Source: Blasia pusilla (lineage: Eukaryota). From it: 64,000 bases of DNA. The notes beneath the pieces are model-generated. The model did no database searches. It worked only from the letters and a program-made list of their open reading frames with translations, and was not told the DNA's origin. The stretch is from positions 28,458,001-28,522,000 of the forward strand of contig CM114271.1 of the NCBI GenBank assembly GCA_050084515.1, given 5' to 3'. A program made the translations under genes and the position numbers. Of this stretch, positions 10,396 to 53,000 are shown in pieces (within the stretch, counting starts at the first letter, position 1; every line of letters begins with the position of its first letter).

Positions 10396-10799
10396 ACGAG
10401 TCTTACGTCTCCCATGTCCTGGACTTGGGATGTCCCTCGAGCTTAACAAATCTAAGCGATTTAGACACCGACCTAATCCTTCACTCCCTGACACAAGCAA
10501 GCCCTTCAAGACTTGGGACATACTTTCTTCATAGTCCAGGAATCTAAAATGACGGTAGTGCACCTAGAGGTCCCCACTACCCAATGGATCTCGAATGAGT
10601 CTCTAGCCAGTCTAAATGTTTGAGCCACAGATCAAGGTCCAAGGTTGATATCCAATAATTAATCCTCTTGGGCTTGGTTTCTTATTCGCATCTTGAAACC
10701 AACCTATTGATCTATTTTGTGCCCTTGGTTCATTCCCACGGTACCCTATGGTTCTCCAAGGTAGGGTTTGGGTCCCAAACTTCCTTGGAGACTCTCCCC

Positions 10800-11192
10800 T
10801 TATCGCACGACATCGGACTAGATCTCATAGACTAGGAATTGAGGAAGGAAAATGGCTCAACGTTAATAGAAGCAAACAAATATGTAGGTTATGCGACTTA
10901 GGAAGTATTGAGGATGAAGAGCATGTGTTTGTTACATGTTCTAGATATGAAGAGATTAGACTAGCTGCTCATAAAACAGATGTTGGGAATTTCTATTCTT
11001 TACTACAACTAGTGCCTTATGATTTTGGTTGTTATATTAGGGTTTTCATTATTCGTTGCTCAAGTGCTCTAGGCATTGGCTAGGATAAGGCTCATAGGGT
11101 CTTTTCTTGATTCGGTGTATTACTTATGATGTGTTTTTTAGCCTTTTGACCCTTTGGGTCCCATGGGTTTGATTTATTTACCATTTACGATT
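10800..11192 (+). mobile_element. LINE 3' fragment (C-terminal CCHC region, 3' UTR and TTTACCA tail)
   Basis: HRTRSHRLGIEEGKW...CRLCDLGSIEDEEHVFVTC is typical of an APE-type LINE ORF2 C-terminus. The 3' UTR is shared with four other copies in the window. Confidence 0.8.
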
Positions 11193-23965: not shown

Positions 23966-26276
23966 TAAAGATATGGCATGGCAGGGGAATTGTCATTGTG
24001 CACATTAGAAATATACAGCGTGAAGTAGAGCTCTATCACCAAGTAACACCTAATTCAAAATTAGCCAGATTTTTTCATAAATTTCATGATTTAAGACAAT
24101 TTTCATATCCATATTTTATGTGATGTGTCCTTTTTAAAGGCACAACGGCAAAGAAAGCAATGTCAATGTGTAGTTTTGGAAACTTGTTGACATGGCTTCC
24201 TTTGGAAAGCTGACAAGTTCATTTTTGTTTAACATAGTCTTATAAGTAGGAAAAATGGTTTTAGAAAGAAAATACATCCAAGAGTACACTTATTTACTCG
24301 CATTTCATCCAGGGCAGTTAACTTTGTTAGTTTTGCAGTGGAGGATAGATTACATGCTTGAGTAACAGGTTGGTACTTCATGAGAAATCATCCTGCAAGG
24401 AGAGTAGAAGTGAGGTTCAGATCTGACCTAAACGCTTTTCCTCCCTTCGAAGTTCCCTGTCATCCCTGATTATAATTGTGCTAGGCGGGTTATGTGATGC
24501 CTTACCTTTGTGGGCAAATCAACCATATCAATGACATAACCGGTCTGGAGTTGTGGCGCAGCATTTCCTGGTAAGTAGGTTTTAGCACTGCTGCTTAGTT
24601 GATCCACCATACCCAAGATCTGTATGTAATCAGATGGGCACGTTAATGGAAGCAGGAGAGCCAAGTTAGTTGAGTTTCAACAATGCGGGTGGACCAGACT
24701 TGGAATGATCTTAACCTAGACTAGCATGTAACTTTTATCGTGAGTCGATCCATCAAGTCCATCTTAATATTAGATCAAGTCATGCATCTCAATTCTATCT
24801 TGTCCTAATTTATGGTAGTGGAATTAAGTTTTCCAATCTTCTTCTTGGGGTATGGCCTTCTCCAGTTTCTTGGAAGGTGGTTAATTATTCACAAGTTTTT
24901 TCAACTGACTTATTAGATTTGTAAGTGATCAACTAACTAAAGGAACTTAGAAGACATGCTAAAGAAGGTCAACAATTCTTGGCCTCTCCATATCTATCTG
25001 AACATGGAGCTTCCCCTACTTGGGAGTATTAATTATTCACATACTAGTAGATACTTGCTTAAAAGAAATAGATACATCTCACATCAATAAGCACACCATC
25101 ACCTGAAAGGGGTTATGCAACCATTCCCCTTATTGGTGTTTTGGTGTAGGTAATCTTGTCAAAGGTAACATGCATAATTTTGGAGTAAGTTCAGGAGATC
25201 AAGTGTTCACTTGCCCCATTGTCAGCTACCCACTTGCAATGCATGCCTATCTATGGATAATGATCATCTAAAATACCTAACGCACATTTGGGACATAATC
25301 ATTATCCTCGAGGAATCATATCTAAAGACAGTGACAAGCACATCATATGTTACCCTAATGAACAACCTTCGCAAAAATAGACATGCATACTTAATATAAT
25401 GAAATGTATCAATTCTTGCACAATGTCCATTGTCTTGAACCCTCATATATTTCAAAGTGCCACAATGTTGAGCAATAGGTGCGTTCTCAAATATCTTAGG
25501 CCTGTATGTTCGAAAAAGCTTTGCCTAATGAGAACACATCTTTATCCACACATCTAGTTTGCATGGTTGTACAAAAACATACAAGTTTGTTTAAAAGACG
25601 GACAAATAGAGACAAGTTTGGACATATCAACGAACATAGATTATAAGTGGTGGGGCCCACACTTATAATTCATGGTGGAAAGTAGGCCAAGAGCAAGTGG
25701 GGCAACAAGGGGGAGGAAGATGGGATGAAGGGAGGATGAAACGGGAAAATATGGAACACGTAGGCAAGTGGGAGGAAAAAGAAAGAAGGGGAAGTTGAGG
25801 TCCCATGGAGAAGTCCTTTCATAGGCCAGACATAAGTCCACGGACTTGGACATGTCCGTAGACATGAATTTTTTTCACATACAACCTTACTAGTTTAATG
25901 GGATTGATAACCTTTGCTACATCCCGCCAAATTTTCTTAGGAGAATTAAGCACTCGCCCATATAATAGAAAATAACATAAATGGAGGCCAATGATGGTTG
26001 ATGACTCAATCGATAACCATGATAGATGTAGGTTCTAATCTTCCAAATGCCCCTAATTCAAGGCATACTTGAATAAACTAATCTTCATGACCATTTGCTC
26101 CACCAATCCACGGACTTCACGATGATCCCGAGGTAAATGGATTGGCGCAACGAGATTGAATCCTACAACAAGCCAAGTGGATGGTCAAATGCTTTCGACG
26201 AAGTGGATTGGATTGCTTGGATAGCTTCCATATCAAGGGACTAGGATACTGCACTTGGATATTTTCGGAACATAAT

Positions 26277-26632
26277 TGGAGGTCAAAATCTTGTGGGGGC
26301 CATATCTTTCTAGTAGAGTGTCATGCTAAGCTGAAATTTTTAGGAAACGTGAATGTTGAGTAGACGCCAAGCCCTCCAAATTCAAGCCAAACCGAGTTAT
26401 AGCGAAGAAGTTGTGTGACATCTGAGATTCAACTCTTCTAAATTTAAGGATCGGAGGTCAGAATCTTGCGAAGGCCATATCTTTGTGGTGGAGTGTCATC
26501 TCAAGCTGAAATTTTCATGAACAGGGAAGGTTAGGAGGCGCCCTAGCCCTACAAATTTAAAACCAAAATGAATTACACAGAAGAAGTTGTGTGACATTTG
26601 AGACTTTTCTCTTCTGCATTTGAGGATTGGAG
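26277..26632. repeat. About two tandem copies of a 175-176 bp unit
   Basis: The GGAGG(TCA.AATCTT) anchor recurs at 26281, 26456 and 26632. Homologous to 42764-43075. Confidence 0.8.
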
Positions 26633-26639
26633 GCCATGC

Positions 26640-27621: not shown

Positions 27622-28676
27622 TATTATGCGTATACACATCACTACACAACATACATTTTTGTCACCGAACATACACACAAATACAAACGATCCCCTGCTA
27701 ACTCATGGCATCCAACCATCAACGTGATAAGTACCAAAAATATCTCCCATCGCCCACTAGTTGGTGATTAGGTCCCTCAAACTCCATATAACCATATATC
27801 CCTACCTACCATAACATGCATCTTTAGGATGCTAAGAGCAAAAAGGCATGGTGCTCATGAGCCCCCATCATTAATCGCCTTCTTGTCATCCATATCACAG
27901 ACACAAGTCTAAATCTATAACTACATACTCTATGTACATCTGGGACACATCCATCGTCCGCGATGAACACTAGTGAGAAGTGACGTTAGAGAAGCTATAT
28001 GCCACCCTCTCGAACATCCATCACAGACTAGCATAGTGGTTGCATCACGGGCAGAACTACAAAACATACAGTGCAATCTTGCAAGAACCATTTCTAAGCT
28101 CGAATTAATTGTATTGTCAATGTTAGGAAGGTGATATAGGGCACATTTACGCATATGGTCTTTCCAAACCATACCATGATGTCCCTCCAATAAAAGAAAA
28201 CCAGATGGCAAAACATCACGCACTCTCAAGATAGTGCGCCATGCAATCACATCCAACGTCGTGGATGCCATTTGCTACAAGTAGACATAGTCCCTTATGA
28301 AACCTCTGGATAGTAGGTTGATAACCACCTCCTTGAATAGTTGCATGCCTCAAAGTATCCCGATGCTGCGCAATTGCCAAGTTCTCAAATGCCATGGGCA
28401 TTTCTGTCTGAAACAACTCAACCCTCTAAGAACATGCTTGCATCCATACATTAGGGTCATCAAGATTCAGCACCTCACCAACATCTTAACAAATGGTCGG
28501 AGGTAAACTTGGCTCTCGGCCATAAAGCAACAAATATGGTGAGAAATATGCTAAGGATTCTTGCGTTAAGAATTTGTACCCATCGCCAACCACGAAAACT
28601 AAAGGTCCCAATCTCTTAGGTGACCTCTGTACAAGCCATACTTGCGTGAACCTCTCTCCAATGTATGCACAACCCT
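27622..28676 (-). mobile_element. Ty3/Gypsy PHD-family copy D: integrase C-terminus, PHD, PPT and a single B repeat
   Basis: MPMAFENLAIAQHRDTL...WKDH...CMFC...CDGCSRGWH...WMCPRC. The terminal ~128 bp (27622-27749) matches the B repeat at 46303-46428. Confidence 0.88.
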
Positions 28677-28853
28677 TATGATTTAGGTTGTTATATTAGG
28701 AATATCATTATTCATCGCTCAATTGCTCTAGGCATTGGCTAGGATAAGGCCTGGCCTCTAAGGTCTTTTCCTCTTTTGGTGTATTACTTGTAATGTGTTT
28801 TTTAGCCTTTTGACCTTTTTGGTCCCACGTGCTTGATTTATTTACCATTTACT
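28677..28853 (+). repeat. LINE 3' UTR/tail copy
   Basis: CCTTATGATTTAGGTTGTTATATTAGG...TTTACCATTTAC closely matches 11015-11190. Confidence 0.85.
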
Positions 28854-33532: not shown

Positions 33533-35423
33533 ACTCGCCCCCCTAACTGGCGGTTAGGTCCCTCTAACTCCCAGGTAGCCCTATACATCTCCTACATGCT
33601 ATACACCTTCGTGGGAGCACAAATCAGAAGGTCGGATGCGAGGTTGCCCCATCGTTAGTTGCATATCTGTAATCCATATCATGCAAAGATCAAGTCATCT
33701 ATCCCTCCTAAGTACATCCAGGACAAACCCACCTTCCAGTAGGAACGACATCCACACGTGGAGTCAAACACATCATGTGCCAACCCCTAGAACACCAATC
33801 ACACTCCAACATACGGGCTACGTTACCAGCAGACCCACACAACATGCACCTCAAGCTAGCACGTATCATGGCTAATCTTGGGTCAACAGTACCATCCACA
33901 TTTGGAAGATGACATGGCGCACAATTACGCACATGCTCCTTCCAAACAACTCCGTCATGACCCTCCAAGATGAGAAGTCCAGAAGCTAACACTGCTCGCA
34001 CTCGTAAAATAGTGCGGCATGCCATCACATGCAACGTTGTTGGTACAATCTGCTGCAAATAGACATAGTCCCCCACATGGAACCTACAAATCGATGGTCG
34101 ATAATCTCCACCCTGAATGGTTGCATACCCCAAGGTATCCCTGTGTTGAGCAATGGCAAGATTCTCAAAGGCTGTTGGCATAACTCTCCGAAAGAGCTCT
34201 GCCCGCTGAGAACACACTCTCATCCACATCTTTGGGTCATCAAGGTTCACCACCTCACTAGACTCCTGATGAATTTCTGCTGGCAAGTCTAGATCTCGAA
34301 AATAATAGAAAATAAAAAAAGTCCGTATAACAGAAAATAAGGTGAGAAGGAAGCCAAGGATGCTTGGAAACTAAACCTATACCCCATGGCTAACCATGGC
34401 AACAGAATATCCCAGTCTCCAAGATGCCCCTTATGTAGGCCATACTGGCGCAATGCCCTCTTCACCTTCTGAACCACACGCTCAGCCAAACCATCCGCCT
34501 CTGGATGATCTCGAGACGTGGTTCGATGATCAATCAACGCCTTGTCACACAAGACCTGAAACTCACCCTGAAACTCTGTACCCCGTTTGGTCAACATCTC
34601 AGCTGGTGCACCAAAATAACTAAGCACTCTATCAAGAAACGCATACGCCGTTCCCTCACTTGCCTTGTCAGGTAATGCCACCAACTCAATCCACTTGGAG
34701 AAGTGCTCCACCATCACCAACACAAATCGATGATGTCGTACAATCAACGGTAACGGTCCTGCAAAGTCCACACTCCAACGGTAACCCAACCCCATAATAG
34801 GCAAGGGGTGTAACTGTGGTGTAGGGGCATTGAATGATGCCCTCACCTGGTGGCAAACCATACAACGTGACACCAACTGCTGCACTTGAGTATGCATGCC
34901 ACGCCACCAATACTCGCCAAGGAGTAAGCTATACGTACGCTTTACCCCAAAATGTCCCAACTCCTCATGGGCATGTCGCACAATGCGCTCTCTCTAAGCC
35001 AAATGCGGCACCACTCGTACTCTACCATCCTCCCACATACGGAGAATATGTGTTCCCTCCAATCGATACCTCCTAGCACGTTGAAGAACACGGTCTCGCT
35101 CCTTGGCACTCACTATGCCTCACACCCTATTGGTCCGTAGGAACTCCAACACCAACCCATAATCATGAATATCACGCTGATCCGTACCACCATCTCCAAC
35201 CTTAGGATCTGAAGGCTGGCCATCTTCCCTCTAACTAGAGTAAGATGTCATGTGGTCCTCCATATTAGAGTCCGCCCCTAACCAACATAAGAAGGCAAAT
35301 GCATGCCAACCTGGCACCATCTCCTCATCAACCTCGCCATGCCATCTAGCCCCAGTTGCATCCTCTTGGCTAGTACATGGTTTCCTACTCAACCCATCAG
35401 CATCAAGGTTGGCAACTCCAGGT
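32953..35423 (-). mobile_element. Ty3/Gypsy PHD-family copy A: end of RNase H, integrase, PHD and B-A-B terminus; interrupted at 35423 by copy B
   Basis: ORFs 34289-34981 (HAHEELGHFG, CMVC, WSVDFAGP, GLAER) and 33708-34286 (PHD). The RNase H motif PGVANLDADGLS abuts the copy B terminus. Confidence 0.93.
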
Positions 35424-36178
35424 TGTCGTGCGTATAGATATCGCTATACAACATACATCCCTGGTCACATCTACACCACACAACACCGATCTTCCCCACA
35501 CACGGGTCGATCCACACATGTACAAAAATAAACTTATACATATACATGGAGATCAAACAAAAAAGTAAAGAGTAGTAAAAATGGCACACCCGGCCTAAAA
35601 CTCCACTCCTCAATCTACATCGGCATATCAAGCCTCGTCCACCATGTGCTATCAAGGAATCTGGACGCTAGCACCCTAGTCCTATCCCACACACATACAA
35701 GAGAGGTGCTCCAACAACCCAACATGAGAAAGATGGCTTAAGAAAACCATCTTCCTCTCTTATATAGGGTTGGGAAGAGCCAAAAGGATCTTCCCCTAAA
35801 AATAGCCCTCCCCTTCGTAACCAGCTCGCATAGGTTACCAGGGGCGGGTGACTTGGTCAACAAGTCACTCGGCTAGGAAAGACCTCAACATGAAAGTTGT
35901 CAAAAATGACGTTCCTGACACAATGGACCTATCCTCAACCTCATCCGACACCATGGGAAAAACTTACACTCAAGATACTCTGATGGCTCCTACGCCCTAT
36001 CCACAATAGATCTCGGCCTATCGGCTACTCAGATGTGACAGCTGTTGTACGCATACATATCGCTACACAACATACATCGCTGATCACATGTACACCACAC
36101 AACACTGATCTTCCCCACACACGGGTCGATCCACACATGTACAAAAATCAACTCATACATATACATGGAGATCACACA
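35424..36178 (-). repeat. Terminal repeat block of copy B: LTR 35424-36040 plus an extra 136-bp B copy at 36043-36178
   Basis: 35424-35559 and 36043-36178 are direct repeats. The LTR reads TGTCACA...CACGACA on the minus strand, with a TATA-like CCTATATAAG at ~35757-35768. The PPT-like tract is at 36180-36190. Confidence 0.85.
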
Positions 36179-36256
36179 ACCGCCCCCCTAGTTGGCAGTT
36201 GGATCCCCCCAACTCCAGATAGAAAATATCACATCTCTCTGACATGACCTACTACC

Positions 36257-36397
36257 CTATACACATCTTGGACACATCCATCGTCACGTGGGAACCACAT
36301 CAAGAGGGGGGGTTAGACATGACATATGCCACCCTCGAGAACAACCATCACATACCAACATGGTGGCTGCATCCCTCGCAGATCCGCACAACATACA
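36257..36397 (-). other. PHD finger (Cys4-His-Cys3) at the integrase C-terminus
   Basis: CMLCGSARDAATMLVCDGCSRGWHMSCLTPPLDVVPT*RWMCPRC. Also present at ~33708-33850, ~27930-28075 and ~46560-46700. Confidence 0.93.
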
Positions 36398-36399
36398 CC

Positions 36400-37570
36400 T
36401 CAAGCCTGCAGGTACCATTGCCAAGCTCGGATCCACCGTCCCATCTACATTCGGAAGATGACATGGCGCACAGTTGCGCACATGATCCTTCCAGATCATG
36501 TGTTTCAGGCTTTGTGTGATCAGGCGCTGATAGATCACCGCAACACGTCCAGAGATCATCCTGAGGCGGATGGGTTGGCGGAGAGAGTGGTACAGACGGT
36601 GAAGAGAGGATTGCGCAAGTATGGCTTCCAGCAGGGACAGTTGAGGGAGTGAGACCTACAGTTGCCATGGTTGGCTATGGGTTATCGCTTTAGTCGGCAG
36701 GCATCCTTGGCGTCATTTTCACTGTACTTTTTGCTCTTTGGGAGAGAGCCACATTTACCTACAGCAATTTGAGGTGACATGGCGAAGGTGTTAGATCTTG
36801 ATGATCCAGATGTTTGGGTACAAGCATGTTCTCAGAGGGCAGAGGTTTATCGTAGAGTTATGCCTATGGCCTTTGAGAACTAAGCTATTTCCCAGCATAG
36901 AGATACATTGAGGTACGTGACCATTCGTGGAGGAGGTTATCGTCCAAGGATTAGGAGGTTTCATCCTGAAGATTACGTGGATGTCACTACAAGGCACCGC
37001 ACCCACGACGCTAGATGTCACTACAAGGCGCACGATCCTACGTGTGCGCAAGGTATTATCGACCGGAGTCCTCATGTTGGAGGGACGGGATGGTATGAAC
37101 TCGATACTCTGGTCAGTCAACACCTCCGCCGGTGCACCAAAGTGACTAAGCACACGATCTAGAAACGCATAAGTTGTTCCCTCGCTCGCCTTGTCTGGTA
37201 GTGCCACCAACTCTATCCACTTGGAGAAATGCTCCACCATGACCAACACGTACCTATGATGATGCCCCGTCAATTGCAAAGGTCCCGCAAAGTCTAAACT
37301 CCACCAATAACCTAAACCCATAATCGGCAAAGGATGTAACTGCGGAGTGGGAACATTGAAGGATGCTCGCACTCTCTCACATACCATACATCTAGCCACA
37401 AACTGTTGTATCCCAGTATGCATGCCGCGCCACCAATACTGAACTTGGAGTAAGCTGTAAGTACGCTTTACTCCAAAATGTCCCAACTCCTCAAGGGCAT
37501 GTCGCACTACACGTGCTCGTTGGGAAGGATGAGGTACCACTCGTATCCTACCATCTCCCCATACCCGCAA
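36400..37570 (-). pseudogene. Gypsy integrase (zinc-binding and DDE core), with 36500-37094 inverted
   Basis: HALEELGHFG...CMVC, WSLDFAGP and VLTDQ on the minus strand. The continuation (HPEADGLAERVV...) is on the plus strand at 36500-37094. Confidence 0.92.
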
Positions 37571-37899
37571 AATATGAGTCTCCTCCCACCTGAACCTCCT
37601 GGCTCTCTATAGGATCCGATCCCGCTCCCTAGCACTCACTGTACTCGCTATGATGCTAGTGCGCAAGAACTCCTCAACCTCCACGTCGTCATGGATATCA
37701 CGACCACCTGTCGCCTCCTCACTAACCTTTGGATCAAAAGACTCATCATCCAACCCCACCACTCGAGTCATCACCTGTGGCTGACCTGCCATAGTCAACC
37801 AAGAAAGATAGGCATATGCATGCCAACCGGGCACCATCTCCTCATCACTCTCTCCGTGCCATCGAGCTCTTGTGTCGTCTCTCTGACTCGGACATGGGT

Positions 37900-39333
37900 T
37901 ACGACTCAACCCATCCGCATCCTGGTTTAGCCGACCTGGCCTATGAACCACCTCAAACTCATATTCCTGTAGTAATAGAGCCCACCTGGCAAGCTTTCCC
38001 GTAAGCTTGTCGGACTCCATCAACCACCTCAACGGCTGATGATCAGTGATAAGTGTGAAAGGGTTTCCGAATAAATAGCACCTGAAATGTGCCACGGCCC
38101 ACACTACGGCCAAGCACTCTCCCTCGTAGGAGATGTACTTTGCCTCTGCAATGTTGTTCGATCGGCTCGCGTAGCCACAACGAACTCCCTCTCCTCATCA
38201 TCCCTCTGAGTAAGCACTGCTCCTAGACCCAACATGCTCCAATCCGTATGTAACTAGAATGGGCGACCCCTAACCGGTCTCTGTAAAATGGGTGAGGACG
38301 TCAACCTGTCCTTGAGCTCCTAAAATGCTCGCTCTAGATCATCTCCCCACAACCAAACCTGATCAAGTCTCATCAACAAGGTCAAAGACTTTATGATCGC
38401 ACTAAAACCCTTGACATATCGTCCATAGAAGTTCGCCAGTCCAAGAAATGCTTGGACTCGACTCACATCTGTAGGGCGTGGAATCTGCGCAATAGCCTCT
38501 ACCTTTGTCTGCTAAACGTCTAACCCACTTGGGTATATGATGTGTCCCAATTATTCAATCTGCTCTTGAAAGAATCTGCACTTGCCTGGATGTAACTTCA
38601 GTCCATGTAACTGCAATCGCCGAAACACCTCCTCCAAGTGTCGCTCATGCTCCTCAACCGTAGAACTGAAGATAAGAATATCATCTATGTAACATCGTAC
38701 AAAATCCAAGCCAGCCAGAATCCTATCCATCACTCTCTGAAACTCTGCAGGTGCGTTCTTCAACCCAAATGGTAAGAACCGCCACTAATACAAGCAATCT
38801 CTCCCGAACCGATCTATCCCCCAAAATGCTGTCCTCTTGTTGTCCTCCAACCTGATAGGAAGCTGATGATAGCCAACACGGAGATCTAAAGTACTGAAGA
38901 TCTTTGCATGCCCTACCGCATCAAAGATCTCTTCAGGAGAAGGCATGGCATATCGATTTGACCTCGTCTGTCAGTTGATAGGACGATAATCTCCACACAT
39001 CCGCCTATCCGTCCAATTGCCATACATATCCTTCTTCGCCGGCATGACTGTGGTAGATGCATACTCCCCATGTGATAACTCCACAAGTCCTGCCTCCAAC
39101 AAGTCCTGACTCTAGTTCTGAATCAAGGCTCGCTCCATATCAGAATACTTGTAGGATCGACGAAAGATCGGCGTATCGCTATCCAACTCAATCCGTATCC
39201 CTGGACCCTTCAGCGTACCCAAGTCTCTCATACTGAAGGCAAAACAACTGACATGCCTTCTCAGAAACCTATGAACTCGCCGTCGCTCTCCTCCTATCAA
39301 CTTGAGACCTATCATAGGTTCCCAAGTCTCCAT
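37900..39333 (-). pseudogene. Gypsy reverse transcriptase and RNase H
   Basis: RMCGDYRPIN, FSTLDLRVGYHQL, PFGLKNAPAEFQ, YIDDILIFS; RNase H TDWSMLGLGAVL, EGECLAVVWAV, TDHQPL, DADGLSR. Confidence 0.95.
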
Positions 39334-39639
39334 CGTGACCTCACTCGAAGAGAACGCAACCTCTGGCTTTGGTTGTATGTAGCAACCCTAGCCACCTCCG
39401 CAACAACCACCCCACTCTGACCTCCTACATCATGCTCCGCATCCGAAAAATGAACATGTGCTACTCCAGCAGGCTTCACACTCTCTGCTCAAATGACGTC
39501 CCAGGAAGTCCATGGGTGCCTATCTCTCCTCGTCTCGCCCCCAGCCAATGCCTGTACAGACCCTGTAGGCAATGGTCCAACTTGTGGAGGTTGACGTGAC
39601 GGCATGGATGACACTCGCATCCGTATCTGCTCAGCCATA

Positions 39640-40590
39640 CCTAGGCTGACTATCCATGTGAGACAGTTGAGGTCCATCGCCTGCCCCAACACCTATCTCT
39701 GGGATGCTTCAGTCATCCCTCGCACCGCCGTAGTATCGGTTGCGAACCCCATGGCGCGCTCGCACTCATTTGCTGTAGGCTCCTCCAATGCTCCGGTCAC
39801 CTCATCCCAAATCATGCCTGGCCCTCCCTAACAAAAGGCATGGGATGTTGGGAAGCTCACCAACGTAGGTAAGGCTGCCCTCAACTCCTCCACCCTATTG
39901 GCCATGGCCAACGGTGGTCTATCATCCCGTGTGACCACTTGAGATCGACGCCCTGAGCCCAAAATAGCATCCAGTGTGAGATGTGGTGCTCTTTGGACTC
40001 CATCGTATGCTCGATTCAGTTCCTCTGATAGTATCAGGTTCGTCCACCACAATCGTGGATGATAGGCACGTGATCCAACTCTCTCCGTATCTAATAACAC
40101 AGCAGGTCCCAACTATGACCTCACCTGATACACACTCGTCATCACACGTGCACGAGTGTCTCCCAACAATGGCACGTTCTCCAAGATGTACGTTGGAGAA
40201 TATGTCGGACTCTCCTGCAAGTGTCGTACTACTCGCAGTATCTCCCAAAACATCCCTGACCTCGGATCCTGCAATCCAAATCCTCGGCCAGCTGATGAAT
40301 GACCTTGACATGGCCATCCAGCAATCACCAAATAAATGGTGCCAACTCTATCCAGATCCTGTGCCCCCACCAAAGAGATGTCGGCGGGTAGTGTATGCTG
40401 ATATCCCCGTACTGCAGATACCGGAAACAACTCATGATACCTCTGGACCAATCTCGCCACGTGACGTAATGATACTCGCCGCGCGGTCTCATCTTTCTCC
40501 ACATAAAGGTACTTATGCACCTGTAAGCCCGCCTGCAATACTGCAGCTAATCCGGTGCTAATCCCTCCGAAGAGATCTAACACCCTAACA
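39640..40590 (-). pseudogene. DNA (cytosine-5)-methyltransferase catalytic domain, DNMT3-like, embedded in Gypsy pol
   Basis: Motifs in canonical order and one reading frame: I VLDLFGG, II VEKD, III ADI, IV AGWPCQG, V DPRSGMF, VI ILENV, VII LLD, VIII SRAYHPRLWWTN, IX ECERAMGF, X LGQAM. Three in-frame TAG stops. Confidence 0.93.
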
Positions 40591-40943
40591 CCCTCCTCTG
40601 GGCACTGCCACACAACGGGTGTGGTATTTAGTGTGGTCAACGTCTCCACTCCAAGAGCCCGATTGCCACGTGACTCTCGCTGCTCCGAGATAAAAGCATG
40701 ACTCCACGCCTGCCTCACGAAGTCGTCGACACTCCTTTGTAGCTCTCGAGTCGTACCCCACAATGGCGAAGAGGTCTCGCCAACATGGGAAGAGATACCC
40801 GCCATGGCCTGTCTCTCCGTGGGACTATCCACTATTGGGACATCCTCTGCATGTGCGTTCCCCTCCAAAAACTCTCTTGGCCAGCTAACACTACCTGTGA
40901 AAGCCGCCAACGTGGTCACAGACTCGCCTCGTAATCGACCACC

Positions 40944-42620
40944 TCATCCCGCAAATTGCACGGGTAACTGACTCATCCAGCCGTCACCTGACCGCCACCC
41001 TAGCCGATAAGCAACGGTCTCCTCCCAGAAGTCAAGGATGAATCCTAGGGGATATAACACTGTACTCCCCACCACCACATCGTACGACTCAGTTGGTGTC
41101 ATAATCGCACGTGTGCGCACCATAGCACTATCCATCTCATGCTCTGGTTGGACTCTGACAACTATCTTCTGTCGAGTCATATACTGCGTGGGTGACACGC
41201 CTCCAATCGAGGTCTGTATCTGGAAGGGACAAGGCTCAATGTCGGCCTTCCGTAACCCCAACGCTAAACACGCCGCCTTCCCTAACATCAAGGGTTGCAC
41301 TCCCGAATCAAGTAGGACGCGCTAGTGTCCCCGTCGGACTAACCAAGCAAAATACTCCAGCTTGGTAATCCAGTAACACTACTCTAGGTGTCACCACTGC
41401 TCGCTCGGTGCATCTCGCAGCACCTCGAGTTACCACTGCAGCTGCCTCAACCTGGGCTGCACTACACATAAACCCCATACTAGCGAGATCCTCACACGGG
41501 TCAGGGTAAGAGGTAGAAGTTGGAGTCACACTAGCTACTCGTAGCTCCGTGCCTTCCCTAAGCTGCATCATCGTCGTGGCAACAATCCTATGCTCCAACT
41601 GATCGATGCGTGAGAGAAGTGACGGCTGTGGTGCTCCTGCTCCATCTCCTCTGGCTGGTGGTGGTCCTCTACCACCACGTTGAGGAAGGACTCCCCAACC
41701 TCCCCCAGGACAACCGCCCCCAGGCCCTCAGCCTACCTCTGGACATGCCCCTCGGCAAAGGTCAAAACATCTATCCCTAGTGTGACCATATCTGTGGCAA
41801 TAGTCACACTGGTGCTGTGGTGGGGCCATCCTCTGTGGCTCCTGAGCAATCGGAGGCACTAGTGGTCCTCTCCCATGCTGTGGGCAGTCTTTCTGCCTAT
41901 GGGCCCCTCCATACGTCCAACAAGACCACATCGGTCCCTGTTGGGCAACATATGTAGGTATGCGTCGTTGCCTCATAGGCTCATGGTAACCGCCCTGCTC
42001 TTTGGGCACACCGACCCGCTTTCGTGGTACTGGTGCTCACTGTGGCATCTCTGGGGTCACCGTCGCTCGTGGACCGGTCGACTCTCGAGAAAATCCAGCG
42101 GTCACTACTTGCTCCTCACTCATGTTGAGCTCAATATGCTCAGACAACTCAAAGACCACCTTCAATGTGGGCTTCGCTATGTGAATGAGCACCACATCTC
42201 GGACTCTCCTTCGTAGTTCTCGGTCCAGAACCCCGTACCAATAAAGGACTGACTGCGCCTCAGTCACTCCATACGAAGCAATGATCAGCCTCCTCATGCG
42301 TGTGAATGCCTTTCTCAGACTCTCACCCGATCATCCCTGAAAATCTTGTAGACTCTTCAACTTGTCGGTACATACGCCCTGGTAGCTCTTCCCCAACTGT
42401 CGGAAGAACTCCACTTTGGGGCTGAAGCTGGGTGGCCCTCTACCACCAGAGGTCTCTGCCACATCGCCTCTCTCACTGCCCTCCTCTCCATCTAGTCGCC
42501 GGGCTGAGGGTGTGGGTCTCTCTCCTCCCACAATCCCATCATATGCCTCGCGACCACTAGTGGACACATACCCTGGACTCAATCTAGACTCCCTCTCACT
42601 GAGAGGTGTATTGTGTGACA
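40944..42620 (-). pseudogene. Gypsy gag (two zinc knuckles) and aspartic protease
   Basis: CWTYGGAHRQKDC and CDYCHRYGHTRDRC knuckles. Protease RVLLDSGVQPL (~41300-41325) and YDVVVG. Confidence 0.85.
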
Positions 42621-42763: not shown

Positions 42764-43075
42764 GGGATTGGAGCTCAAAATCTTGCGGAGGCTGTATCTT
42801 TGTGTCAGGTCATGATCTCAAGCTAAACTTTGCAGGAAAATTGGAAGTTGCTAAGGAGCATAACTCTTGGAAATTTCAAGTACAACCAACTTATAAAGAA
42901 GAAGTTGTGTGGTGTTGGAGATTTTCCTCTTGAAGATTTGAGGATTGGAGCTCATAATCTTGCGGAGGCGATATCTTTGTGTCGGATTGTGATCTCAAGC
43001 TGAAAATTTATAGGGAAGTTGGAAGTTTCCAAGACGTAAAATTTTTGAAAATTTCAAGCACAATAAACTTATACA
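42764..43075. repeat. About two copies of a 177-bp unit related to 26277-26632
   Basis: The GATTGGAGCTCA.AATCTTGCGGAGGC anchor recurs at ~42773 and ~42950. Shares ATCTTTG...TCTCAAGCT...GAAGAAGTTGTGTG with the 26.3 kb repeat. Confidence 0.8.
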
Positions 43076-43079
43076 GAGG

Positions 43080-44640
43080 TGATGACACAACTAAGAAAAT
43101 AAACAAATGGAAAATGTAAAGATTTGGATGATCTTTCAATTGAACTTTTGAAGTGGGGAGGAGATTCTATCAGACTGATCCTCACCAATGTTTTGGGTGA
43201 TGCTACTCTCTATGGTTTTCCTTCTACTTGGTTACTACATGAGATTATTCCTATTCACAAATCAGGAATGAAGGATTTTAAGACAAACTATTGCATTATC
43301 ATGGTGAGTAGTATTTTTGCCAAGTTGTTTGGGAAATTGGTGGAGTCAAAGTTGAGGGCATGGACGGAGTATTTCCAAAAGAGAGCACGAGTTCAAACTG
43401 GTTTTTGCCCAACATACAACACCATCGACCATATCTTGGCCTTACGTGTTCTATGGGAGAAATCTAAGGGCAATGGGAAAGCTTTGTTTTGTGGTTTCAT
43501 CGATTTCAAGAAAGCTTTCGATATAGCATCTCATAAGCTCTTGAGGGATCAGTTGCAACCCATAGGGGTTCCAAAAAATCTCCTAGCTGCCATGGCCACA
43601 TTGTACTATTCCATTTGGGCCAATATCAAAGATTCACAAACTCAAGAGATTTTGAGTACTACCGGAGTCATTCAAGGTTTTCCTCTCTCACCTACTCTCT
43701 TTGGAGTTTTTATAGCTGCTATCGAAAAGTGATTGGAGTAATGTGAAAGTGAAGGTATAAAGCTTGGAGACTTTGATATCAAAGATTTATTGTATGTAGA
43801 TGATATCATATTACTTGCACAGGATGCCATTAGTTTACAAAAATATCTTGATACTTTGGAAAGTTTTTGTTCCAAGAATCAGATGGAGGTTAGTATGGAG
43901 AAGTCTAAAGTCATTGTAGTGGGTACTAGATCCAAGTTCTTCTTAATTTTCAAAGGTCTATAATTAGAATAAGTGAAGAGTTATAAATATATAGGCATTT
44001 ATTTCTCTCATGACTATAGTTGGGCACTTTGCTTACAAAAGAGAGTAGAAGCAAGTTACAAAGCTCTATACTCACTTTTCAATTGGTGTAGAAAAGCTCA
44101 TCTTATATCATGGGATCTTAGGAAGTTCTTATCTAGGAGGTTAGCTCTCCTTATGGTCTTATAGGGGACCCAAGTTTAGGGCCCTACTTGGAAGAAGATA
44201 GGTTGGGAGCGCGTGGAGAGGGTGCAAAAGATCTTTCTACCAGAAGAATTGGGTGTAAGAAACCAAACTCCTTATGCTATTCTTCTTGTGGAAATATGTT
44301 TTCTTCTTCGAGAGGATGAAGTTATCTACTTGACCATTAATTATATCGTAAGGTTGAGATTCTTGATATTTCTCACCTCCCTCATCAAGTTTTGCGAGTC
44401 ACACGTTCCATAGGGTGGATTGCAGATGTGGTAACTTGGTCTTCAAAGTGGAATATGGTCAATCATGATTGGGACTTGAATCTGATAGCACTCTGCGAGC
44501 ATCTATAGAACATTTTCTCACATTATTTGGAGTAGTCCAAGCACAAAAATGGAGTATTATCAACTTCATGTTAATCCTATGCTTGTATATTGTGAATAAG
44601 GGTACCTACTTGCGGGATCTCCACCTTCGTACATCATATT
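43080..44640 (+). mobile_element. LINE reverse transcriptase fragment, disrupted
   Basis: IIPIHKSG, QTGFCP, FIDFKKAFD, GVIQGFPLSPTLF, LYVDDIILL, YKYIGI. Confidence 0.88.
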
Positions 44641-45657: not shown

Positions 45658-46820
45658 TGTCGTGCGCATACACATCGCTACACAACATACATCGTTGTCA
45701 CCAAACACACACAGAAACACACACGATCCCATGCTAACTCATGGCATCCAAACAACGAGACAAGAAGTACCAAAATATCTCCAATAAAATAAGATCCAAT
45801 CTTTCTCACAATACCATAATTCTCATATGTGTGCACTCTCACATGTCCCTTTCAATGTCAAACCAAACCCACTCTCCTAACGATAGGCTTGGGTTACACT
45901 CACAAGGCAAGGGACCATAGCTCTGCCGCCTCATGCTAAGAGGTTCAACAAAGAGAGAATGAGCTGTCAAGCTTTCTCTCCTTGAGGTATACTCGTCTCC
46001 TCCCTCAAGCTCTCTCCATGATAACCTATGCTCCCAAGTCACCTCATTGGCTCTTGACTTGATGTAGGAGCTTAAGGGCCACTTACCAAAAATATAAAGT
46101 GGACCATATACTCAAAATGGTACTTACCTAAGATAGTAAGTTCCTCAATATGGCTCCAAATGAGCCGAAACGAAGGGGAAATCTTCTCTCTCAGGTTTTC
46201 CGGGGCCTCAACAGGTCATCCTCAACCTCCTGAGCTTGTCCTCCACTACTTGAGAAGGAGCTCTACTAGATCTCACTGATTTATCCTAAAAGATATGACA
46301 GCTATCGTGCGCATACACATCGCTACTTAACATACATCACTGTCACCGAACACACACACAAATACGCACGATCCCATGCTAACTCATGGCATCCAAACAA
46401 CGAGACAAGAAGTACCAAAATATCTCCAATCGCCCCCTAGCTGGTGGTTAGGTCCCTCTAACTAAGAGCAAGAAGGCCGGGTGCTTATGTGGTCCCATCG
46501 TTAGTCGTCTTCTTGTCATCCATGTCATAGATACAAGTCAGAATGTAGAACTACCTACGCTATGTACATTTGGGACACATCCATCGTCCCTGAGGTATCC
46601 TAGTGAGAGGTAGCGTCAAACATGCCGTATGTCATCCTCTCGAACATCCATCACAGACTAGCATAGTGGCTCCACCACCAGCGAATTGACACAACATACA
46701 CCTCAAGCTGGTAGGAACTACTGCTAAGTTTGGATCAACTGTACCATCAATGTTTGGAAGATGACATGGCGCACAGTTATGCACATGGTCCTTCCAAACC
46801 ATACCATCGCGTCCCTCTGA
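45658..46820 (-). mobile_element. Ty3/Gypsy PHD-family copy C: PHD end, PPT, B (46303-46428) and LTR (45658-46300)
   Basis: EGRDGMVWKDHVHNCAPCHLP...CMLC...CDGCSRG. 126-bp direct repeats at 45658-45783 and 46303-46428. Confidence 0.9.
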
Positions 46821-50026: not shown

Positions 50027-53000
50027 ATCACCCCCCCTCTCAATATCCACTCTCATGTGGACTAATGTCTTGGATTGATGCCAGACACTTCAGATGTCGT
50101 TGAAGCTCATCTCTGCTCAAGGCTTTGGTGAATACGTTTGCACGGTTATCCTCTGTTGGACAATTGACTAACTTTAAAACCTCTCTCTCGATCAACTCTC
50201 AAACAAAATGATAGTGAATCTCTATGTGCTTTATACAAGCATGAAACAAACGATTATGTGCTATGGAAATGCAACTCTAATTGTCACACCACATTACAGT
50301 AACACTTTGTGGTGCTTCTCCTATGTCTTCCAATATCTATCTCAACCATACTACTTCACAAGAAGCATAACAAGCCGCCTTGTACTCTGCCTTGGTAGAA
50401 CAAAGAGCCACTGTAGGTTTCTTCTTGCTGACCCATGATACCACACCTAATCCTACCAAGAAAAAATTAATACTAATACCTCCATTAGCGAGACCACTAT
50501 CTTACACTCGGTCATCCTGAATCCCTTCAAAATTTCTCTAGCATACTTTTGCTGAGATAGAAAAATAGAATCGGACTGTTGTCAAATCTCCAAGCCTATA
50601 AAGTAGTGCCAAAGGCCTAAATCTGACATTTCAAACTCAGATTTCAATACTTCCTTCATTTCCTCTATTTTCTTACTGTGGTCTCCTGTCATGATAAGAT
50701 CATCAACATAAATGACTATCACCATATATATCCCATCTTTGCAAAACACATACAAATTTGCTTCTGATAGACTTTTGATGAGACCCCTCTCTCGGAAGAA
50801 TGTATCTATTCGTTAATACCATACCCTTGAGGGCTTCCTTCAACCCTTACAATGCTCGATGAAGCGAACACACTTTCTCTTCTAATCTGAGTTTCTCAAA
50901 ACCTAGTGGTTGAGATATATATACCTTCTCCTTGAGACTCCCGTTCAAAAATACAGACTTAACATCGTGTTGGTATACAAGCCAACGTCTTGTTCCCGCC
51001 ATCGCTAGAACAATTCGAATGGTTTTCATCCTTGCAATAGGAGCAAAAGTCTCATAGTAAGAAAAATCTTTGATTTGTGAACATCCTTGTGCAACCAAAA
51101 TTGCTTTGAGTTTATCCAATGTATCATTGGACTTGTACTTGGTCGTGTACACCCATTTGGTGCGTAGTATCTTCTCGTCTTTTGGGTTTTCAACCAAAGT
51201 CCAAGTTTGATTTCTTTGAATAGCGTCCATCTCTAACTGCATGGCCTCTCTCCATTGAGGATGAGCAAGGGCCTTATCCAAGCATGATGGCTCTTCCACC
51301 TTCAAGACCTCTATCATCAAGGCCATGTTCATGAGATGTGCGGAAGCTCTATTCTACTCCTCTAGTCTCTTGGATCTCCTAGGATGTGTAGCAACTTCAT
51401 CAATTGCTGGTGGATCCTTACCATCCAAGAGTTGCTTAATCCACTTAGGGTATGACAAAAGTAGTGGAAGAGTAGGTTGTTGTTTGTAATCATCACCAAA
51501 TTCTTCTTCTTAATGATCCAATGTAAACATTGATCATGTGCTCTAGTAGGTTATCTCTTTTTTTGATGATAATGTGGATGGACCACTGATATTCGCCACT
51601 TGATGAGGATGCTCCTTAAACACCACATCACGACTCACAATCATCTTCTTTTCCTCAAGAAACCCTAGGCAATAAGCTTTAGACTCATCATTGTATCCCA
51701 TAAAGATGCACTTCTTGCTCTTGGACTCGAGCTTAGTCCTGGATGTATTAGGAATACGTACAAAGCACTCACTACCAAAAGTCCTGAAGTGTTGGACTGA
51801 TGGTACCTTACTTGAGTATGCTTGATGAGGAGGCATGCCTTGCACTGATTTGGTAGCAATTCTATTTAGAATGTAAACAACAGTATTAACGGCTTCAACC
51901 CAAAATCCTTCTATCAAACCTTTTGCTTGCATCATTCATCTTGCCATCTTCATCAATGTACGGTTTCAACACTGAACAACTCCATTTTGTTGTGATGTAT
52001 GTGCCATGGTTAAGTGTCGCTTGATTCCATTCTCCCCTAAATATTTGTTGAATTTTGTTGATAAGAATTCTCCTCCTTGATCGGTGCGAAGCTTCTATAC
52101 CTTCTTTCTTATCTCATTCTCAACCAGCTTGTGTCATACTTTAAATTTTCCAAAACACTTGCCTTATCACGAAGGAAGTACATCCACATCTTCCTACTAT
52201 AATCGTCGACAATAGAAAAGAAGTAGGAAGAACCACCTAATGCCATTGTTTGCATTTTACCATAGGTCAACATGTATAAGCTCTAGAGGAGCCTTTGCTT
52301 TATTGTTGAACTCTTGTGGAAATGATTGTCGGTGTTGCTTGCCCATCATACAAGCTTCAGATGTATTTGACACTCCATAAATTGTTGGTAAATCAACGAC
52401 CATGCCAGATTTCTGCATCTGACTCAGTAAGGGAAAGCTTAGGTGGCCAAATCTTTCATGCCCTAACTTACTACTATCAAGATTGATACCTACACTTTTT
52501 GTGAAAGCATACAACTCGTAGATATTTCCACAATATATATACCTTCATCCACTACTTTCCAATCGGCATCCTCAATGACTGCTCCAAATTTCTTGAAACG
52601 AACTTCTAAGTTGCAATCACATAATACAACTACTGAAAGAAAATTGCGCTTTAACTCTAGTACGTACAGTACATCAGTTAACTTCTTTTCATCTACTTTT
52701 TGTTAGACTAAATAAATTGTGTCTTTCCCTTCTAGAGGGCACTTTGCATTACTCCCAACAATAACAACGACGAACTCCTATAGAGGCTGTAAGGAGCTAT
52801 ACTAATCCTTATGATTGGTCATATGCCTAGATGCTCCACTATTGAGCACCCATGCATCTTCACTCTTTAACTTAGTGGAATTTTCTGCTTATATACAAAA
52901 ATCTTTGATTGCTACCCAAGCATCTATCTCATGTTCTCCTAGTTCTACAGAATTTCCAAACTCTTTCCTATGTCTTAAGCAATCGTTCTTCTTATCCTGG

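Follow-up and report, generated by a model that had tools for sequence, protein, structure and literature searches.

What does a transposon gain from carrying the kind of enzyme that its hosts use for transposon silencing? The question is raised by a locus of Blasia pusilla in which a cytosine methyltransferase (MTase) domain lies within a retrotransposon. We analysed this locus in a stretch of 64,000 nucleotides, here called the window and numbered from its first letter (GenBank assembly GCA_050084515.1, contig CM114271.1, positions 28,458,001 to 28,522,000). Elements of this kind are already known from one green alga through KnitGypsy-Dnmt3 of Klebsormidium nitens, described in 2018 in a paper whose text leaves the role of a transposon-borne DNMT "unclear" (PMC5890265). 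For land plants, a passage in print states that methylase-encoding transposons are absent (PMC6338049).

A dead retrotransposon copy and its relatives in the genome

On its minus strand, the window carries a copy of a Ty3/Gypsy-type retrotransposon that is dead and has lost part of its 5' side (Table 1). Its damage comprises three frame changes, an inverted piece of integrase and about 20 stops. Pfam matches and collinear tblastn alignments give the Ty3/Gypsy order of gag, protease (PR), reverse transcriptase (RT), RNase H (RH) and integrase (INT), with a DDE integrase after RNase H; the MTase is added to this otherwise ordinary order between PR and RT. The protease ORF of the window has no Pfam match, and was identified by its DSG motif and by its alignment with relatives whose sequence matches Asp_protease_2. 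At the 5' side, DNA word depth drops beyond position 42595 from thousands to about 40, and other copies have a loose end at 42577.

Table 1. Coordinates of the window element, its MTase motifs and the adjoining partial copy
Feature	Position	Strand	Basis or remark
gag remnant, 5'-truncated	41404..42577	(-)	tblastn of Marchantia and metagenome ORF1s; one frame off from protease
CCHC zinc knuckle in gag remnant	41767-41808	(-)	motif coordinates
Aspartic protease	40692..41321	(-)	same frame as MTase; LLDSGV at 41298-41315
In-frame TGA between protease and MTase	40944..40946	(-)	private to window copy
DNMT3-type C5 cytosine MTase domain	39498..40640	(-)	Pfam PF00145, PDB sequence search, motifs I-X
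MTase motif DLFGG	40563-40577	(-)	protease frame
MTase motif YVEKD	40491-40505	(-)	protease frame
MTase motif PADI	40377-40388	(-)	protease frame
MTase motif GWPCQ	40305-40319	(-)	protease frame
MTase motif DPRSGMF	40248-40268	(-)	protease frame
MTase motif ENVP	40170-40181	(-)	protease frame
MTase motif HPRLWW	40044-40061	(-)	protease frame
MTase motif ECERAMGF	39744-39767	(-)	protease frame
MTase motif LGQAM	39675-39689	(-)	protease frame
In-frame TAG stops inside MTase	40113-40115, 39828-39830, 39693-39695	(-)	exactly three
ORF1 tail after MTase	39378..39497	(-)	TGA at 39489-39491
Remnant of family ORF1/ORF2 stop and context (TA-CAA-CCA)	39370..39377	(-)	junction alignment
Reverse transcriptase	38152..39339	(-)	YIDD present; 7 in-frame stops; tblastn, 73% identity to L017 RT
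RNase H	37607..38194	(-)	Pfam RT_RNaseH E 2.7e-24; one frame off from RT
Integrase zinc-binding domain and start of catalytic core	37097..37606	(-)	Pfam Integrase_H2C2 1e-14, rve 2.8e-10; tblastn
Inverted integrase core piece	36494..37096	(+)	private to window copy; self-BLAST; L037 ORF2 residues 761-967 match plus strand
PHD finger, integrase C-terminus	36239..36490	(-)	2 stops; Pfam PHD E 3.1e-08; tblastn to L037 ORF2 residues 960-1042
Polypurine-like tract (TAGGGGGGCG)	36181..36190	(-)	directly before repeat B1
3' terminus: B1 (36043-36179), A2 (35561-36042), B2 (35424-35560)	35424..36179	(-)	ends ...ACGACAA
Second, partial copy of same family (RH-INT-PHD)	33708..35422	(-)	L037 ORF2 residues 487-1035 match

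Several of these lesions can be followed in other copies. At position 40946, within the TGA between protease and MTase, 14 (X1) and 22 (X4) DNA contigs, making up all or nearly all of the local depth, carry another letter, and in relatives a single open ORF1 runs through the matching point. Other copies likewise have one more letter at 38172, where the window copy changes frame between RT and RNase H. The joints of the inversion (36493/36502 to 37093/37097, on "opposite strands") are present in both RNA reads and DNA contigs.

The ends of the element do not form a pair of identical long terminal repeats, either in the window copy or in the relatives L045, L057 and L070. These three relatives have split direct repeats of the form A1...B1-A2-B2, with the same polypurine-like tract before B1. 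The window copy retains B1-A2-B2 only, its 5' partner A1 being missing, and its B1 and B2 are 91% identical over 137 bp by self-BLAST. Repeats that are likewise DIRS-like and not plain LTRs are described in the text on the Klebsormidium element (PMC5890265). The second copy in Table 1 is 77% identical in nucleotides to the first (self-BLAST), and since its break abuts the 3' end of the first copy, we read the arrangement as a nested insertion. The window contains transposon debris only.

Related copies are present in high number in the same organism: the element has a DNA word depth of 1,578-11,881, and the sequence beside it one of 37-49. Most RNA reads are 90-95% alike to the window copy (650 of 792 and 672 of 796), with first mates almost only on the plus strand, so that the family is transcribed in sense, assuming a library of the usual stranded type. 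RNA depth over the MTase bins is low (0.6-6), and the RNA could stem from silenced or read-through loci.

At 188 places a C or G of other copies is matched by T or A in the window copy, and the reverse holds at 53 (X1). Its decay is thus mostly C-to-T and G-to-A, as expected of a methylated transposon. By observed/expected ratios of CpG and CWG, the window copy cannot be told apart from its flanks, nor from relatives that are uninterrupted.

This pattern of decay bears on whether the TAGs in the MTase are damage at all. The three stops inside the domain are without exception TAG, as they might be if the organism or the element read TAG as an amino acid. The same frame carries TGA stops just outside the domain, however, and the RT has seven stops, besides the frame changes and the inversion of the copy. 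Degraded relatives also carry all three kinds of stop in place of residues of the query (55 cases of TGA at Arg, 47 of TAG at Gln and 23 of TAA at Gln), and the 188 to 53 excess itself argues for damage. We give recoding next to no credence and take the TAGs as lesions. The first-pass annotation had described the three TAGs as the only stops, which holds inside the domain and fails just outside it, where the two TGAs lie.

An intronless domain of DNMT3 type

The Pfam DNA_methylase profile (PF00145) matches the window ORF 40113-40943(-) with E 6.6e-11 and 42.6 bits against a cut-off of 22, and the window protein read through its stops as X with E 1.8e-10; in the window and in relatives alike, the match is limited to profile positions 47-119. 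Nine motifs follow one another in non-permuted order, with motifs I, IV (PC) and VI (ENV) present, and 16 sequences of relatives show little or no variation at the catalytic PC, ENV and RxR positions. A complete C5-MTase with its motifs in order and its catalytic PC and ENV intact, placed between protease and RT in the protease frame without introns, is what the first-pass annotation had proposed from the letters, and the motif positions together with the profile search it suggested bear this out.

To which class does the domain belong? In a PDB sequence search, the window MTase matches DNMT3A/B/C best (E 6e-07), followed by M.HhaI (1e-03), DRM (6e-03) and DNMT2 (0.013 or weaker), and no DNMT1 chain is among its 52 matches at E up to 1. 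For the fold we used a relative, L017, whose MTase is 60% identical to that of the window, and not the broken window protein. Its AlphaFold model is confident over residues 8-352, and the Foldseek matches listed to rank 50 are all DNMT3A/B/C, with E from 1.3e-19 and TM-scores on the target of 0.78-0.84 for DNMT3 catalytic-domain chains. A profile of the family MTase finds retroelement proteins, then animal DNMT3s at 1e-10 to 6e-05, and nothing else; a search of the ESM Atlas returned generic PF00145 clusters only. Together with the modelled fold of the relative, these rankings support the DNMT3-like assignment of the earlier annotation and put the window domain closer to DNMT3 than to DNMT1, DNMT2, DRM or bacterial enzymes, where "DNMT3-type" refers to PDB and animal sequences and the tree outgroup consists of animal DNMT3s only.

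The domain shares motif order and predicted fold with the catalytic domain of animal DNMT3A/3B/3C at an identity of about 20-21%. It differs from these enzymes in being embedded in gag-PR, in its longer stretch between motifs VIII and IX, and in its company, as Pfam finds no PWWP or ADD domain, and we found no introns, in the window and relatives.

A family-wide, selected part of the polyprotein

A domain found in one badly rearranged copy, which is truncated, partly inverted and joined to a nested neighbour, might be a one-off capture, an assembly chimera, or a host DNMT3 gene hit by a retrotransposon. The distribution of the family argues otherwise. Homology searches found 40 homologues, including many Marchantia polymorpha gene models, which are collinear with the window gag, PR, MTase, RT and RH, and models from Calypogeia, Sphagnum and Closterium. 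The gag-PR-MTase order recurs in the models of all four. Relatives are encoded by 312 of 441 metagenome stretches, and 616 representative clusters match at E<=1e-30. The same order thus stands in independent genomes and in these 312 stretches, the relative L037 has a single open frame through gag, PR and MTase, and introns, PWWP and ADD domains are absent, as noted above. An origin peculiar to the window copy is, in our estimate, extremely improbable: the check for a one-off insertion, proposed with the annotation, found the domain family-wide at the same place. The MTase is a regular part of the polyprotein, and the family is already in public land-plant annotations as "hypothetical protein".

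In the MTase tree, with animal DNMT3s as the only outgroup, the window copy nests in a clade with liverwort and moss sequences. Members of this clade have the order PR-MTase-RT, and another clade has RT-RH-MTase-INT. Only 8 of the 80 fetched loci have an uninterrupted MTase domain.

Rates of substitution indicate what has been maintained. Between the uninterrupted relatives L037 and L031, dN/dS is 0.17 for PR, 0.13 for the MTase and 0.45 for the ORF1 tail, and 0.06 for RT, 0.08 for RH, 0.03 for INT and 0.06 for the PHD end. Between diverged lineages the MTase gives 0.10-0.25, far from the value near 1 named beforehand as evidence against the annotation, and deep pairs (dS 1-2) have a median of 0.15 (n=50); pairs without usable dS, 818 of 1,540, were dropped. 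Shallow pairs give 0.39-0.63, an elevation that we read as decay after insertion, with inner and outer branches pooled. These sequence comparisons put the strength of purifying selection on the MTase at about that on PR.

The uninterrupted relatives also reveal how the polyprotein is divided. ORF1 is gag-PR-MTase, about 1,280-1,370 aa, with the MTase as last domain and protein models ending 53-95 aa past it; ORF2, in the same frame, is RT-RNase H-integrase-PHD finger, 1,047 aa. In L037, an open ORF1 of 1,369 aa is followed by TAG CAG TTA and an open ORF2 of 1,047 aa. The annotation's placement of the domain "inside pol" therefore stands as to the polyprotein order PR-MTase-RT and needs correcting as to the reading units, since in relatives the MTase ends ORF1 and a conserved stop precedes RT-RH-INT-PHD.

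That stop has a marked context. It is in frame at 28 of 29 junctions (TAG 19, TAA 9, TGA 0), CAA or CAG comes next in 27 of the 28, and CAA CCN is the common context. The text of PMC2754532 gives CAR YYA after UAG as the readthrough signal of tobacco mosaic virus (TMV). The family's match to it is partial, because 23 of the 28 junctions go on with YYC and only 4 with YYA. As in TMV and in retroelement gag-pol readthrough, UAG or UAA is followed by CAA or CAG and by an open, conserved downstream frame (PMC2754532); in the family, by contrast, the stop comes after gag-PR-MTase and not after gag, and the third codon is mostly CCC. From these sequence features we infer a putative leaky stop of TMV type, at which readthrough would produce ORF2.

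Other routes to ORF2 have to be weighed, namely a -1 frameshift, reinitiation, splicing or a separate transcript. In their favour, the window copy has its RT one frame away from the MTase, one Marchantia gene model treats the junction as an intron, and most junctions have YYC and not YYA. Yet RT is in the MTase frame at all 28 junctions with a stop, the frame beyond the junction is open and under strong selection, and the constancy of TAG or TAA, never TGA, with CAA or CAG next at 27 of the 28, in lineages about 50% diverged in protein, speaks for the stop itself. The window frame change is explained by one missing letter of the junction stop. Other copies have one more letter at 39375/6 in 10 of 14 reads (X22) and 4 of 4 reads (X23), and, by DNA depth, in 72.1 of 72.1 (X1) and only 7.6 of 499.7 (X4). 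A programmed -1 frameshift from MTase to RT was rejected, as the RT of relatives is in frame behind a conserved stop. These other routes taken together are unlikely, and we retain readthrough of a leaky stop.

Possible roles, known systems and meaning

The leaky-stop layout predicts MTase in Gag-like amounts, much above those of RT or integrase. The protease may free the MTase through weakly constrained flanking stretches, of which the C-terminal one is predicted to be disordered (pLDDT below 50 over residues 353-438 of the L017 model, the tail after the MTase). The enzyme would most likely methylate new element cDNA or the DNA of the integration site de novo.

A different substrate or role has also to be considered. 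The enzyme might act on RNA, such as genomic RNA or the tRNA primer, or serve as a non-catalytic, DNMT3L-like partner of host methyltransferases. In yeast, no methylation was obtained with the Klebsormidium Gypsy-Dnmt3 domain, a result that the authors call inconclusive, and the same text raises RNA methylation for another TE-borne DNMT (PMC5890265). Gag-like amounts would also suit a function associated with RNA or with the particle. Against this, the nearest enzymes both by fold and by sequence are DNMT3A/B/C, which act on DNA, and not DNMT2, and PC, ENV and RxR positions invariant or nearly so in 16 sequences are unexpected of an inactive partner. We put the probability of an RNA or partner role as low, and favour de novo methylation of DNA.

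The integrase ends in a PHD finger, as the annotation had seen. Its best matches are CHD4, PHF12, PHF21A, KDM5 PHD1, ATXR5, UHRF1 and AIRE, PHD fingers that prefer the unmodified histone H3 tail. By analogy, the finger of the family appears most similar to readers of the unmodified H3 tail, and it would probably steer insertion away from active promoters. Chromoviruses likewise have a chromatin reader at the integrase C-terminus, thought to guide insertion according to the text of 10.64898/2026.05.21.726589; theirs is a chromodomain, and that of the family a PHD finger like those of CHD4, BHC80 and AIRE. The same text describes EpiLTRs of Cymbomonas and Euglena, also LTR elements with a cytosine methyltransferase and a chromatin reader, whose DNMT, in contrast, is sister to DNMT4 and closes pol on its 3' side, accompanied by a chromodomain and an adenine methyltransferase.

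The closest known system is KnitGypsy-Dnmt3 (de Mendoza et al. 2018, PMC5890265). It is of Gypsy type and has a non-rearranged, intronless DNMT3-type domain in its polyprotein, with Ka/Ks below 0.2 (0.10-0.17 in the family here) and repeats reported as DIRS-like (A1...B1-A2-B2 in the relatives here). Its host is a streptophyte alga, whereas the relatives here are found in liverworts, mosses, Closterium and chlorophytes, and neither a PHD integrase nor a leaky stop is mentioned in the text of PMC5890265, figure 4c and supplements aside. No Klebsormidium protein appeared in our homology searches or in a look-up by name. The shared Gypsy domains, DNMT3, DIRS-like repeats and purifying selection are resemblances, suggestive as a likeness and not proof of common descent. 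SymbioDIRS-Dnmt3 of Symbiodinium also has a DNMT3-type domain under purifying selection in a retrotransposon polyprotein, and this domain methylates CG de novo in yeast; it differs in its DIRS class and dinoflagellate host, and the authors describe its acquisition as independent (PMC5890265).

We conclude that, very probably, the window holds a dead, 5'-truncated copy of a Ty3/Gypsy-type family in which a DNMT3-type C5 MTase is a regular, selected part of the polyprotein, with the roles proposed above. The window copy itself is capable of none of these functions. A broader picture is possible but rather more doubtful, in which land plants (at least liverworts, mosses and the host of the window) keep a high-copy, transcribed lineage that would make its own DNMT3 in Gag-like amounts through a leaky stop of plant-virus type and carry an integrase with a PHD finger for the unmodified H3 tail, a kit kept since before the chlorophyte/streptophyte split, with the MTase moved between two places in the polyprotein.

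Literature searches, including by Marchantia gene identifiers and for PHD integrases, found no description of a land-plant Gypsy-DNMT3 element, and the accessible text of PMC6317226, PMC6453930, PMC5784723, PMC11982613 and PMC12344493 has none; the supplements of PMC5890265 and PMC12344493 may list such elements. The presence of the family in land plants corrects the statement of absence in PMC6338049, which the broader picture, if true, contradicts.

The known streptophyte case sits in an alga that is hard to manipulate. Marchantia polymorpha is a genetic model plant. With open ORF1 models in this species and a high-copy, transcribed family in the host of the window, the question of what the transposon gains becomes testable in land plants. 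The Gag-like amounts predicted by the leaky-stop layout would narrow the candidate roles to something in or with the particle. Should the enzyme prove active, bryophytes would have a supply of de novo cytosine methylation outside the host DNMT3, DRM and CMT pathways.

The methyltransferase domain and its decayed host element

The feature described in the first-pass annotation is real and was correctly read. In translation, the ten cytosine methyltransferase (MTase) motifs lie on the minus strand in the order reported there (40,577 down to 39,675), and the frame translated from 41,321 to 39,480 also carries a protease LLDSGV motif upstream of them, as described. Pfam returned a DNA_methylase match (PF00145; E 6.6e-11, 42.6 bits vs a cut-off of 22). 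The statement that the only stops are three TAGs holds within the domain but not just outside it, where the same frame contains two TGAs.

The proposed likeness to DNMT3 was supported by sequence and by the fold of a relative. In a sequence search of all solved structures, the best 25 distinct sequences were DNMT3A, 3B or 3C (from E 6e-07), ahead of M.HhaI (1e-03), plant DRM (6e-03) and DNMT2 (0.013 or weaker), with none of the 52 matches at E ≤1 being a DNMT1 chain. The fold was modeled, using a 16-row alignment, on the unbroken MTase of metagenome locus L017, which is 60% identical to the window MTase; mean pLDDT was 77, with residues 8-352 confident and the last 86 residues below 50. The best 50 Foldseek matches listed for this model were DNMT3A/B/C throughout (E from 1.3e-19, identity 19-21%), with TM-scores on the target of 0.78-0.84 against catalytic-domain chains and lower values against longer chains. 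A profile of four family MTases retrieved 79 proteins, 72 of retroelement type followed by seven DNMT3s from animals (1e-10 to 6e-05), which have PWWP and ADD domains. Together, the solved-structure ranking, the L017 fold and the family profile support an MTase that is DNMT3-like and not rearranged, the tree described below having animal DNMT3s as its only outgroup.

The window is collinear with its relatives through gag, protease (PR), MTase, RT, RNase H (RH), integrase (INT) and PHD finger, and the PHD integrase noted at first pass was recovered by Pfam.

Features of the window element, from translation, Pfam and alignment to relatives
Feature	Position	Strand	Evidence or remark
TAG stops within MTase	40113-5, 39828-30, 39693-5	-	translation
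TGA stops, MTase frame, flanking domain	40944-6, 39489-91	-	translation
gag CCHC knuckle	41767-41808	-	relatives' alignment
RT		-	YIDD present; between MTase and RNase H
RNase H		-	Pfam 2.7e-24
Integrase		-	Pfam H2C2 1e-14, rve 2.8e-10
PHD finger, C-terminal on integrase		-	Pfam 3.1e-08
Polypurine-like tract	36181-36190	-	then B1, A2, B2; element end 35,424
Second partial copy, same family, RH-INT-PHD	33,708-35,422	-	77% nucleotide identity to first

In-frame stops number about 20 across the aligned parts (gag 3, PR 1, MTase 3 and its tail 1, RT 7, RH-INT 1, inverted piece 3, PHD 2) and three frame changes. The integrase core holds an inverted piece (about 36,494-37,096), and the 5' end is missing from near 42,577, where DNA word depth falls from thousands to ~40 and other copies continue differently. 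Because of these stops, frame changes, inversion and lost 5' end, the window copy is dead. Its 3' end is intact, and its terminus at 35,424 adjoins the 5' break in the RNase H of the second copy; the first copy is thus nested in the second.

A tandem repeat of ~177 bp lies just past the truncated 5' end (42765-43077), with a related copy at 26.3 kb (26275-26633). No host gene was recognised in the rest of the 64-kb window, which consists of transposon debris. An integrase-PHD scrap at 27933-28706 (minus strand, 7 stops) belongs to a more distant family, with 37% identity to ORF2 of metagenome locus L037, and a PHD-only scrap lies at 46563-46817 (minus strand, 55% identity). Debris at 50847-51935 (minus), 14569-15357 (plus), 43103-43732 (plus) and 8263-8721 (minus) comprises Ty1/Copia pieces (RVT_2, SH3_retrovirus), two RVT_1 ORFs and one zf-C17orf113 ORF.

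The ORF1/ORF2 junction and the element termini

Models that extend beyond the MTase but short of the RT end 53-95 aa past the MTase. A recognisable RT start is present in 29 loci, 28 of which carry an in-frame stop at a common upstream place (TAG in 19, TAA in 9, TGA in 0), while the single exception has a tyrosine codon in its place. CAA or CAG directly follows the stop in 27 of the 28, the third codon is CCC (22), TTA (2), CTC, CCA or TCA (1 each), and the RT frame is that of the MTase across the junction. In L037, an uninterrupted 1,369-aa ORF1 (gag-PR-MTase) is followed by TAG CAG TTA and an open 1,047-aa ORF2 with a PHD finger at its end; locus L031 is built alike, its junction reading TAG CAA TCA. 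The MTase of these lineages shares only about 49% identity with P0003, the Marchantia query segment, which makes the stop with its surrounding codons a conserved feature and not an accident. UAG followed by CAR YYA is the leaky-stop signal of tobacco mosaic virus (PMC2754532), and that paper lists, among its references, work on the suppression of UAG and UAA by plant tRNA-Tyr in this context. A conserved stop in such a context, with the RT in the same frame, suggests that ORF2 would be reached by stop readthrough.

A -1 frameshift, based on the window's own frame change, was rejected: the change falls exactly within the stop. The window reads TA-CAA-CCA at the junction. Other copies contain one extra letter there in 10/14 and 4/4 RNA reads and, by DNA depth, in all of 72.1 in run X1 and only 7.6 of 499.7 in run X4. 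Other copies also fill in the second frame change of the window copy, at 38,172 (9/11 and 6/6 RNA reads). In a third group (L057 8989-11529, and L050), MTase and RT share one ORF that begins just before the MTase, so the ORF break is not at the same place in all groups.

Three loci with both ends present (L045, L057, L070) begin at the 5' end with terminal repeat segment A1 and close at the 3' end with B1-A2-B2, with a G-rich tract ahead of B1 and a terminus of ...ACA or close. This is a split-direct-repeat layout. The Klebsormidium element is described as having 'the same structure of repeats as a DIRS retrotransposon' (PMC5890265). In these loci and in the window (35424-36190), split-repeat ends occur with a DDE integrase in one element.

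Family distribution and selection on the MTase

The claim that the MTase is a family polyprotein domain was upheld: this is not a one-off insertion. The first homology search returned 40 proteins at 35-66% identity, including many Marchantia polymorpha 'hypothetical proteins', two Calypogeia fissa models, and Sphagnum and Closterium models. A metagenome contig scan matched 441 stretches, 312 of which encode relatives; 80 loci were retained for analysis. When 1.84 billion representatives were searched exhaustively with a profile, 616 clusters matched at E<=1e-30; of ten looked up, one carried an organism name ('pol', Scenedesmus sp.).

For a quick maximum-likelihood tree, 68 MTase rows were used, leaving out matches covering <300/346 profile positions (except retained species-labelled rows), matches spanning >420 residues, five gappy Marchantia models and 42 of 55 alignable loci. 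The window MTase falls inside a 16-row clade (SH-aLRT 99) with all five Marchantia rows, Calypogeia, Sphagnum and metagenome loci, its nearest row being P0006 (68% identical). The Closterium protein P0048 has the same domain order as the window. A second clade of the same MTase lineage (P0053, P0072, P0065, P0060 and a Haematococcus model) has the order RT-RH-MTase-INT-PHD. P0077 likewise belongs to this sister clade, with its MTase placed after RNase H and ahead of integrase. Among PHD-integrase Gypsy elements, the MTase module appears to have changed place or been exchanged.

For the L037 PHD finger, the closest matches are those of CHD4, PHF12, PHF21A, KDM5 PHD1, KAT6A/DPF3, ATXR5, UHRF1 and AIRE. 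These fingers bind H3 tails that lack K4 methylation.

Selection on the MTase was evident in the dN/dS comparison suggested at first pass. Between the uninterrupted L037 and L031 (NG86, dS about 0.8-1.6), dN/dS was 0.13 for the MTase, compared with 0.17 for PR, 0.21 for the PR-MTase linker, 0.45 for the tail after the MTase, 0.06 for RT, 0.08 for RH, 0.03 for INT and 0.06 for the PHD end. In a set of 56 MTase sequences, drawn from the window and 55 of the 80 loci with stops masked, 818 of 1,540 pairs were dropped for unusable dS; the median was 0.15 at dS 1-2 (n=50) and 0.39-0.63 at dS 0.05-0.6 (n=546). These values fit neutral post-insertion decay of copies on top of selected lineages. Only 8 of the 80 loci have an uninterrupted MTase, and most stops in degraded copies stand in for a query Arg (TGA, 55) or Gln (TAG, 47; TAA, 23), a pattern of C-to-T decay.

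Abundance and transcripts in the host, and standing of the family

In DNA contigs from two runs, summed word depth was 1,578-11,881 over 35,400-42,595 and 37-49 in the adjoining 500 bases. Raw RNA-seq reads under the same species label, sampled from 6% and 12% of two runs, included 792 and 796 that matched the element at low depth (0.6-6 in MTase bins). Most were 90-95% alike to the window element (650/792 and 672/796) and so derive from other copies. First mates were nearly all plus strand (for example, 15.8-21.9 vs 0.2-2.7 over 37,713-38,997 in RNA run X22), which means sense RNA if a standard stranded library was used. Compared with other copies, the window carries T or A in place of C or G at 188 positions in X1, and C or G in place of T or A at 53 (183 vs 55 in X4). 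The family is abundant and transcribed in this organism, and the window copy is a deaminated relic.

The element kind is known from KnitGypsy-Dnmt3 of Klebsormidium nitens, which is intronless, lies within the pol polyprotein and has Ka/Ks <0.2 (De Mendoza et al. 2018, PMC5890265); its lack of activity in yeast was inconclusive (PMC5890265). 'Marchantia' and 'Physcomitrella' are absent from the main text of that paper. A 2025 paper and a 2026 preprint (10.64898/2026.05.21.726589) place retrotransposon-borne DNMT3 and 'Gypsy-DNMT3', respectively, in 'streptophytes' solely by citing the 2018 work. We found no published description of a bryophyte Gypsy-DNMT3 element; supplementary data may contain some.

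The window copy is a dead member of this known element kind and belongs to a land-plant branch that apparently has yet to be described. As far as checked, the relatives, and not the broken window copy, point to new family details: an MTase that ends ORF1 before a conserved, putatively leaky stop, a PHD integrase, split repeats and two MTase positions.
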